A stretch of 8,797 bases of DNA, from the IMG/VR virus record IMGVR_UViG_2740892212_000011; one strand, 5' to 3'. A model generated the notes under the pieces. The model made no database searches. It was given only the letters and a program-made list of their open reading frames with translations, and had not been told where the DNA came from. How positions within the stretch are numbered: the stretch's first letter is position 1; every line of letters starts with the position of its first letter. Shown in pieces: positions 7,806-8,472 of the stretch. Origin of the DNA: a virus. Lineage: Duplodnaviria; Heunggongvirae; Uroviricota; Caudoviricetes. The position numbers were made by a program, and so were the translations under genes.

Positions 7806-8024
7806 ATGACTAAAAACTATGAACTGATTGTGAAAGGGACCCGCAATTTTGAGAATAAAGTTACGGTAATCTTAACGTTACAGGACAAAGAACGTTTTGC
7901 CGGTGAAATTTTTGATCTGAACATCAACCTTGAGCGACTTGAAGGAGCTGGTTTGGATTATTATGAAGTTACTGCGGTAAAACATGCCAAACAGTTCTTG
8001 AGAGATTTGGCTGAAAAAATATAA
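7806..8024 (+). CDS. Small protein (72 aa) between holin and endolysin, possibly YdfR/DUF1327-like
   Basis: ATG 7806 with strong SD AGGAGAG 7 nt upstream, 4 nt after the holin stop; visibly AT-rich. Family resemblance is tentative. Confidence 0.6.
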   Translation: MTKNYELIVKGTRNFENKVTVILTLQDKERFAGEIFDLNINLERLEGAGLDYYEVTAVKHAKQFLRDLAEKI

Positions 8025-8043
8025 AGCGGCATTACTGCCGCTT
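8024..8043 (-). terminator. Terminator hairpin between convergent genes, functional mainly for the minus-strand gene
   Basis: Stem AAGCGGCA (8024-8031) / TGCCGCTT (8036-8043), loop TTAC; the minus-strand side is followed by UAUAUUUUUU, the plus-strand side has no T-run. Confidence 0.55.
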
Positions 8044-8048
8044 AGAAA

Positions 8049-8345
8049 TTATTCAATGTCTGGTAGCTTATCAAAGATTTCGGATACTCTTATATTTGTC
8101 ATATAAGCAAATTGAGATTCTGCCAGCTCTTTGGGTGATTTTCCCGCTTTTTCTGAGCCAAAAATTGTTTCTAAAGCCAGCATGTTATATTTGAGAACCT
8201 CTTCTCGAGTTTTACCTGATAATTTTGCGGTAACAGCAATATAAAAAGGCAACACTTTATCCAGAAGGTCGTTGTGTTTTGTCAGTTGTGGTAATACCAC
8301 ATCAAGTTGCTTACTGATTGGTTTGAATGGATCTATACCGTTCAT
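8049..8345 (-). CDS. Hypothetical protein (98 aa), oppositely oriented gene inside the lysis cassette
   Basis: ATG at 8345-8343 (minus strand) with SD-like AAGGGAA upstream; own terminator downstream; visibly AT-rich; no transmembrane segment or recognisable motif. Confidence 0.6.
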   Translation of the reverse strand: MNGIDPFKPISKQLDVVLPQLTKHNDLLDKVLPFYIAVTAKLSGKTREEVLKYNMLALETIFGSEKAGKSPKELAESQFAYMTNIRVSEIFDKLPDIE

Positions 8346-8450
8346 AGTTACATTCCCTTATCAGAGGTAATCAGCCATCCCGCCTTTATTACATACGCCA
8401 GTATCCACCACTGACGGGCTGAGTGCTTAACATATCTAGAGATTAGAAAC

Positions 8451-8470
8451 TGATAAATCCTGATAAATAT
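8451..8470 (+). repeat. Tandem 10-bp direct repeat TGATAAATCC / TGATAAATAT just upstream of the endolysin start
   Basis: Two adjacent copies sharing the first 8 bp, ending 2 bp before ATG 8473. Confidence 0.5.
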
Positions 8471-8472
8471 CC

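Follow-up and report, generated by a model that had tools for sequence, protein, structure and literature searches.

A convergent, AT-rich gene pair in the lysis cassette of a lambdoid prophage: relation to the HK97 moron and reverse moron, and a structured leader RNA

What is a small gene doing on the reverse strand of a lambdoid late operon, between the holin and the endolysin, and does the small late-strand gene on which it converges belong with it? The question is raised by a stretch of 8,797 nucleotides (nt), referred to here as the window, from the IMG/VR virus record IMGVR_UViG_2740892212_000011 (Caudoviricetes); this DNA represents the late region of a lambdoid prophage of the Escherichia/Shigella type. 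A preliminary description made from the letters of this DNA had reported a 72-amino-acid (aa) gene behind the holin and a 98-aa gene on the opposite strand in front of the endolysin, had taken both for later acquisitions rich in adenine and thymine (AT-rich), and had proposed that they were a moron, that is, an autonomous unit transcribed against the late operon. Both open reading frames (ORFs) and their convergent arrangement were confirmed. The analysis showed that the cassette which holds the 98-aa gene and the 3' half of the 72-aa gene is a mobile, AT-rich two-gene unit of the HK97 moron/reverse-moron type that entered a P21-type lysis cassette by recombination within its resident ydfR gene. 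Its anatomy is well supported: an autonomous reverse unit consisting of a putative promoter, leader, ORF and terminator sits inside the Q-dependent late operon and converges on a small late-strand gene (Table 1).

An AT-rich cassette recombined into a resident ydfR

When the guanine and cytosine (GC) content was calculated in 200-nt windows, the lowest values of the whole stretch, 0.355-0.39, were found in 7801-8500, compared to about 0.50 elsewhere. The GC content of the 98-aa and 72-aa genes was 0.36 and 0.37, respectively, compared to 0.50 for the rest, and it amounted to 0.386 over 7930-8440 compared to 0.496 for the window outside 7806-8472. The AT-richness that had first been noticed by eye was thus borne out by the GC profile (0.36-0.39 compared to 0.50), and a deviation of the two genes from the backbone is present.

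The phages vB_EcoS-640R1 (640R1) and mEp460 have the same backbone and no cassette. The left junction of the cassette was placed inside ydfR, at about 7910-7925, and the right junction at about 8443, a short distance 5' of the -10 element of the reverse promoter. Sliding identity to the ydfR of 640R1 was 0.90-0.97 up to about 7910 and 0.53-0.67 from there on, so that the 5' part of the 72-aa gene, approximately 110 nt, is 90-97% identical to ordinary ydfR. Because identity drops inside ydfR, the 72-aa gene is chimeric and consists of a resident 5' half and a cassette-borne 3' half. Its start codon lies 4 nt past the stop codon of the holin, the late-operon gene directly 5' of it, which is the usual place of YdfR, and its product was matched to positions 1-72 of the 93 positions of the PF07041 profile with 92.3 bits, compared to a gathering cut-off of 25. 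Compared to YdfR of the Qin prophage and to other DUF1327 proteins, the window protein lacks the C-terminal tail of ordinary YdfR (residues 73 to about 103-116), and the 3' half of its gene has a different origin. In a 2026 report, residues 1-72 of YdfR from E. coli K-12 were found to bind the catalytic (N-terminal) domain of RNase E, and to co-purify with RNA (PMC13232886). The length of the window protein fits exactly this 72-residue core, and the window allele may share the binding of RNase E.

Annotations of mEp460, 640R1 and further coliphage records show the order holin, YdfR/DUF1327 and endolysin, and in records of Shiga toxin-converting phages the holin is followed by YdfR. It is therefore not out of the ordinary for a gene to separate the holin from the endolysin, and the earlier interpretation of this as a departure from the lambdoid norm had to be abandoned. 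The view that both small genes are later acquisitions held for the 98-aa gene and failed for the 72-aa gene, which is a resident ydfR with only its 3' part replaced. The 72-aa protein also belongs to a known, although poorly characterised, family in its standard place, which is not true of the 98-aa protein.

The DNA of 8025-8472 was found in 62 of 5,426 complete E. coli genomes, and the 98-aa protein was found in one of 50,697 phage records, that of phage Evi. Remnants of the 98-aa gene were sought in phages that have ydfR only and none were found. The terminator hairpin of the 98-aa gene was the best terminator-like site in its region, which contained five such sites in total compared to 1.3 +/- 1.2 in shuffled sequences. 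The T-run of this hairpin overlaps the last codons of the 72-aa gene, and a matching hairpin is conserved in a Cronobacter relative (loci L006 and L008), so that the earlier statement that the gene has its own terminator was upheld. Absence from otherwise similar phages, deviating composition and the terminator support the interpretation, drawn from sequence, that the reverse gene is probably an autonomous, AT-rich and laterally acquired unit directed against the late operon, that is, a moron, as had been proposed for it. As in classical single-gene morons (HK97 gp15, lambda bor and lom), an autonomous unit of deviating composition is found in a late operon. In contrast to these, the unit in the window has two convergent genes, and its promoter and leader are common to many cargos.

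The 98-aa protein has an isoelectric point of 5.8 and a net charge of -1.4, and the acidic character ascribed to it is thus mild and not marked. It is predicted to be soluble, which agrees with the earlier observation that it has no transmembrane segment. The statement that it has no recognisable motif also held, as zero matches were obtained in Pfam, NCBIfam, PADLOC and a PDB sequence search; its sole family match was one unannotated PHROG. The AlphaFold2 (AF2) model was a confident four-helix structure with a predicted local distance difference test score (pLDDT) of 85.8, and fold searches with this model gave no specific or informative match. The family comprises 16 clusters among 5.8 billion proteins, and all of its members are from Enterobacterales. 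When 1.84 billion representatives were searched exhaustively with a profile, the gain was limited to three small, distant relatives and a repeat protein that was a spurious match.

Table 1. Coordinates of the cassette, its elements and the adjoining late genes in the window (bp, base pairs; E, expectation value; +, late strand; -, reverse strand)
Feature	Position	Strand	Basis or remark
Q antiterminator	3437-4258	+	Upstream of cassette
S21-type (class II) holin	7586-7801	+	Pfam PF04971, E 6.5e-33
72-aa DUF1327/YdfR core protein	7806-8024	+	Pfam PF07041, E 2.2e-26
AT-rich acquired cassette, ~530 bp	7915-8443 (approximate)		Alignment with 640R1 and mEp460, both without cassette
Intrinsic terminator of 98-aa gene	8024-8043	-	8 pairs (5 G-C), 4-nt loop, tail TATATTTTTT
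98-aa orphan, 'reverse moron' cargo	8049-8345	-	Predicted soluble four-helix protein; phrog_25324
Conserved structured 5' leader, ~77 nt	8346-8422	-	Alignments A5 and A8
Putative sigma-70 promoter of reverse gene	8429-8456	-	-35 TTATCA (8456-8451), -10 TATGTT (8434-8429)
Tandem repeat CTGATAAAT(C/A)	8450-8469 (units 8450-8458 and 8460-8468)		Backbone, upstream of endolysin
Endolysin, 5' part, 85 codons	8473-8730	+	Pfam PF00959 over residues 33-75

Promoter and leader RNA of the reverse gene

The putative promoter of the reverse gene has a spacer of 16 nt, and transcription was predicted to start at about 8422. The -10 positions were conserved in 56 distinct relatives (T in 49/56, A in 55/56 and T in 50/56), and the -10 consensus TAWGKT was found 7-12 nt 5' of the motif UCAGCC. 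Because the -10 element stands at a set distance from UCAGCC, the RNA should start at the base of the outer helix of the leader. A strongly conserved block, CTACTGTTTGAATATCAGGATGT, spans -54 to -33 relative to 8422 (TATCAGGaTGT at -43 to -33). It covers the -35 region and the sequence directly 5' of it, and it may be a regulator-binding site. When the relatives were aligned by eye, a late-strand terminator hairpin was seen 5' of this block; a looser hairpin pattern before the block was matched by 44 of 76 leader-bearing loci. The -35 element is also overlapped by the tandem repeat, which is present in the region upstream of both the reverse gene and the endolysin as had been described. The same repeat occurs 5' of the endolysin in 640R1, a phage that lacks the reverse gene, and also in E. 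coli 2014C-3307, where the reverse gene is a different one. Its presence in 640R1 marks it as backbone sequence that is not specific to the insertion, and the connection drawn earlier between the two was not retained.

In the leader, the UCAGCC segment (8422-8417) pairs with GGCUGA (8376-8371) to form the outer helix P1, and 8416-8409 pairs with 8403-8396 to form the hairpin P2. A sequence resembling the 3' end of 16S rRNA, the anti-Shine-Dalgarno-like ACCUCU (8368-8363), and the Shine-Dalgarno (SD) sequence AAGGGA (8359-8354) are found further downstream. The order was the same in the relatives, that is, a UCAGCC start, the hairpin, GGGAUGGCUGAUUACCUCUGA, the SD sequence and AUG. A base-paired 5' end is a classical protection from 5'-end-dependent attack by RNase E.

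In an alignment of 13 diverse sequences, six of the eight P2 pairs were changed on both sides, 96% of the cells were paired compared to 20-43% when the partner strand was slid, and the score was reached by none of 500 shuffles. The covariation of P2 also held on 64 distinct sequences, and across alignments A5 and A8 the paired cells amounted to 96-99% compared to 15-46% with the slid partner. The same two helices were obtained independently with RNAalifold. The P1 pairing of UCAGCC with GGCUGA hardly varies and is therefore uninformative for covariation. The minimum free energy of the leader was unexceptional (z = -0.58), and the evidence for the leader is the covariation. A third helix or pseudoknot between GGAGG and CCUCU was tried and rejected, since no consistent register was found for it in the alignment. 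Rfam gave no match at 8343-8422, even at E values up to 10. The covariance model recovered 84 copies, and its sole copy in the window was found at 8343-8422 on the reverse strand (79.6 bits). The shared, covariation-supported leader appears to be undescribed so far.

A scan of IMG/VR with the leader pattern gave at least 120 loci, and the 76 loci in which the leader is followed by an ORF were used for cargo statistics. These ORFs fall into at least 18 unrelated cargo families, with a median length of 78 aa. When ten cargo representatives were searched against Pfam, two were matched (DUF1883 and DUF6602). The leader-bearing cargos were more AT-rich than their flanks in 75 of the 76 cases and antisense to the flanking long ORFs in 60. 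Some contigs among the leader loci (L042-L121) carried two copies (L051, L055, L091 and L120). In those of the listed E. coli records that have other cargos, the leader match carried no annotation.

At the matching site in E. coli 2014C-3307 (NZ_CP027368; 2440-3110 of locus L163), the leader was found in front of a different, 95-aa reverse gene. This gene is preceded by a very divergent 75-aa DUF1327 partner and followed by a lysozyme gene. The locus of strain 2014C-3307 suggests that cassettes may be exchanged at the holin-endolysin position.

Partner genes of the relatives and the HK97 pair

Relatives of the 98-aa gene were examined in Serratia, Cronobacter, Buttiauxella, Yersinia, Escherichia sp. 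and metagenomic or viral contigs, at identities of 35-100%. In all of the 30-odd relatives with readable downstream sequence, the gene converged on a small late-strand gene at a distance of 3-30 nt, and the modules were AT-rich in all relatives. The pairs occupied different sites in late operons: the H/M (H being the tape measure gene), M/L and I/J intervals, the stretch from Q to the holin, the interval from the holin to the endolysin (R), and the position after Rz. Two classes of partner were found. Class A, the type present in the window, is a DUF1327 core of 71-76 aa. Class B is an orphan of 93-99 aa, with five clusters among the 5.8 billion proteins, and was found only in such pairs. Partners of class A or class B were also found with other helical reverse cargos.

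Two further features of class B were observed. In Yersinia vastinensis (locus L015, approximately 4314-4860), the class B ORF has an N-terminal extension of approximately 85 residues with a second copy of the C-terminal helix motif ...AE.NAR.Y..., which may be a partial duplication or a fusion. In several class B modules (L005, L009, L010 and L011), a possible GGCGCGG/CCGCGCC hairpin was seen by eye across the stop codon of the partner, of which the last codons are G-A-E/T. Such a stop-spanning hairpin could explain the invariant G-x-G-A C terminus.

The AF2 model of class B was confident, with a pLDDT of 85.9, and its top match in BFVD was HK97 Gp22, with a Foldseek template modelling (TM) score of 0.70. 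Homology between class B and HK97 gp22 was confirmed by hhalign with a probability of 95% and an E value of 2.5e-8 (for example, loci L005, L009, L010 and L038). The HK97 record (NC_002167) places the two convergent genes between I and J, flanked by terminators, and labels Gp22 'moron product' and Gp23 'reverse moron product'. The DNA 5' of HK97 gp23 was found to be 83% identical over 175 nt to that of locus L010, which carries a 99-aa member of the family, and the coding regions could not be aligned. The HK97 leader was matched by the covariance model with 63.9 bits. The homology of promoter and leader, together with the gp22-like partners in the relatives, shows that the window cassette is of the HK97 22/23 kind. 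In both, a small late-strand gene converges on a small reverse gene that has its own promoter, putative in the window, and termination signals. They differ in the partner, which is a DUF1327 core in the window and not gp22-like, and in the site, which is the lysis cassette in the window and the tail operon in HK97.

The cargo proteins themselves are less clearly related. The 98-aa family and HK97 gp23 were aligned by hhalign over 65 columns with a probability of 41% and an E value of 2.8e-4, which makes gp23 a borderline relative, and gp23 was not among the best 50 Foldseek matches to the 98-aa model (E 0.43 or worse). A hydrophobic helix followed by an S-G-D/K turn was observed in the 98-aa family, in HK97 gp23 and in a cargo family of 94-95 aa (L059 and L163), namely LPFYLAVTAKLSGK, LAFLLAVATVESGD and FVITHMIKLLDEQSGD. 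Judged by their sequences, the three may form one fast-evolving superfamily. No function or follow-up was found in the literature searches made on 'reverse moron', on HK97 gp22/gp23 and on the protein accessions.

Possible functions of the pair and its setting in the prophage

Morons carry much of the repertoire of lysogenic conversion and inter-phage conflict, and to our knowledge most small morons have no known function. We favour the reading that the pair in the window functions as a noncontiguous operon. Transcription of the unit in the lysogen would be confined to the reverse gene and would start at the promoter of that gene. Upon induction, late transcription modified by Q would make the 72-aa protein and read through the hairpin, and the late transcript, being antisense over the 98-aa gene and its promoter, would turn the 98-aa gene down. 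Most speculatively, the 98-aa protein might be a lysogen-phase factor in inter-phage competition or host modulation, and the late-strand partner, here the RNase E-binding YdfR core, might be its lytic-phase counter-factor, in analogy with Tai and Ati of phage phi80. In phi80, the reverse-strand gene taiEcA is active in the lysogen and its level falls upon expression of Q; Tai is bound and neutralised by the product of the adjacent late-strand gene atiEcA (PMC11364771; He et al. 2024). The window shares with phi80 a reverse gene that lies in the Q-dependent late operon beside a small late-strand gene. A probability of roughly 45% was assigned to this reading as a whole, that is, to a noncontiguous-operon moron with factor and counter-factor, and it is by analogy that a function in defence and counter-defence would be assigned to the pair.

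Several of the findings weigh against this reading. The reverse promoter is weak by consensus, with 8 of 12 matches, and was below the threshold of the consensus scan. By a crude test, 56 of the 76 leader-bearing loci had no small convergent partner. YdfR was present alone, with no reverse gene, in most of the lambdoid prophages and phages examined, and it must therefore have a function of its own. No sequence similarity between partner classes A and B was found with hhalign. The two classes are interleaved on the tree of the 98-aa protein, which means that partners were exchanged, even between close relatives of the 98-aa protein, and this swapping weakens a strict cognate-pair model. With respect to the phi80 precedent, the tai and ati genes are divergent and overlap at their starts, whereas the window genes are convergent, and Tai has 204 aa compared to the 98 aa of the window protein. 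By eye, and with no formal comparison, no evident resemblance to Tai or Ati was seen, and neither a match to a PADLOC model nor an informative fold match was obtained.

According to a rival explanation, the two genes would be unrelated neighbours, that is, an ordinary ydfR encoding a late RNase E-binding protein and an independent, single reverse moron for lysogenic conversion or fitness. Their adjacency would then reflect tolerance of recombination at this place, with homology in ydfR and in the conserved promoter and leader as one possible route. The common occurrence of ydfR with no reverse gene, the homologous crossover inside ydfR at the left junction and the polyphyly of partner class on the 98-aa tree agree with such an arrangement, as do the leader that drives at least 18 cargo families, most of them with no small partner, and the different cargo behind the leader at the matching site of E. 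coli 2014C-3307. However, all of the 98-aa members examined, even those at 35% identity in other backbones, keep a small convergent partner. Moreover, the gp22-like partners were found only in such pairs and are about as rare as the 98-aa family itself (5 compared to 16 clusters), and both partner classes recur with other helical reverse cargos. The explanation as unrelated neighbours was considered somewhat unlikely.

Two other proposals place the leader at the centre. According to the first, the promoter and leader (UCAGCC, the covarying hairpin, GGGAUGGCUGAUUACCUC and the SD sequence) would constitute a new cis-regulatory RNA of a large class of reverse-strand morons in lambdoid prophages of enterobacteria, comprising at least 18 cargo families and at least 120 viral contigs, and the late-strand partners would act on the leader mRNAs or on their protein products at the lytic switch; this was considered quite unlikely. 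According to the second, a YdfR-type protein would be an RNase E adaptor that sends leader-bearing mRNAs to decay at the lytic switch, with the leader as recognition element. The binding of YdfR residues 1-72 to the RNase E catalytic domain and the co-purification with RNA (PMC13232886) are consistent with such an adaptor, and so are the conservation of the leader far beyond any one cargo and its base-paired 5' end. However, the adaptor model is purely inferential, the gp22-like partners have no detectable DUF1327 similarity, and most leader-bearing loci have no such partner nearby. In addition, overexpressed YdfR was reported to have little effect on the transcriptome of E. coli K-12, in a strain that was not scanned here for the leader (PMC13232886). 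Decay of leader-bearing mRNAs through YdfR was thus judged improbable.

A toxin-antitoxin or abortive-infection pair could be imagined from two small adjacent genes in a mobile, AT-rich cassette, with convergent 3' ends as in some type I systems. However, no toxin, antitoxin or defence model was matched, neither protein is predicted to be hydrophobic or membrane-active, and the genes are convergent and not co-directional or co-transcribed, so that the toxin-antitoxin-like pair put forward in the preliminary description is very unlikely. The lysis regulator that had been put forward with it, taken as a lysis-timing pair specific to the holin-endolysin junction, was suggested by two features: the genes lie between the holin and a lysozyme whose N-terminal segment is hydrophobic, and the 72-aa gene starts 4 nt past the holin stop codon. 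It is nevertheless highly improbable, because in other prophages the pair also sits among tail genes (H/M, M/L and I/J), before the holin or behind Rz, and neither protein has a membrane segment.

The genes of the window are arranged in the order hok/sok, NinG, RusA, Q, DNA methyltransferase, three tRNAs, a TerB-family gene and the S21-type holin, followed by the 72-aa gene, the 98-aa gene and the first 85 codons of the endolysin. The EC12 homologue of the holin is labelled 'class II holin family protein' in RefSeq. The endolysin fragment is a lysozyme with a hydrophobic N-terminal segment; in EC12 the counterpart of the gene is intact, with 534 nt, whereas in the window it is cut by an IS1 end from about 8727 (8722-8797 is 100% identical to the ends of IS1A/IS1B). 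With its endolysin cut short by the IS1 end after codon 85, this prophage has a defective lysis cassette. The hok/sok-type locus, a type I toxin-antitoxin locus, was found at 877-1179. It was matched by the Rfam sok model at 877-1026 with 104.6 bits, and the C-terminal end of an ORF at 967-1179 is a Hok-like hydrophobic peptide. An Rfam match to the small RNA STnc100 (116.8 bits) was found at 6948-7128 on the late strand, in the spacer that separates the TerB/DUF3927 genes from the holin. The three tRNA genes (5933-6176, late strand) have the anticodons CAT, TCG and TCT; the CAT tRNA is tRNA-Ile according to RefSeq in the EC12 homologue and Met according to ARAGORN.

These findings show that the pair in the window is an instance of a recurring two-gene architecture, one that the HK97 record already annotates and on which the literature searches gave no later work. 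If a defence/counter-defence function were true, the pair would be a very small addition to the noncontiguous-operon class predicted by the work on Tai and Ati (PMC11364771). The RNase E link of the YdfR core suggests an alternative, RNA-level tie to the 5'-structured leader, and if the late-strand partners do act on leader mRNAs, this would provide a role for ydfR, a very common prophage gene. The findings make morons of the gp22/gp23 type, ydfR and a possible shared post-transcriptional control element open to concrete experiment.

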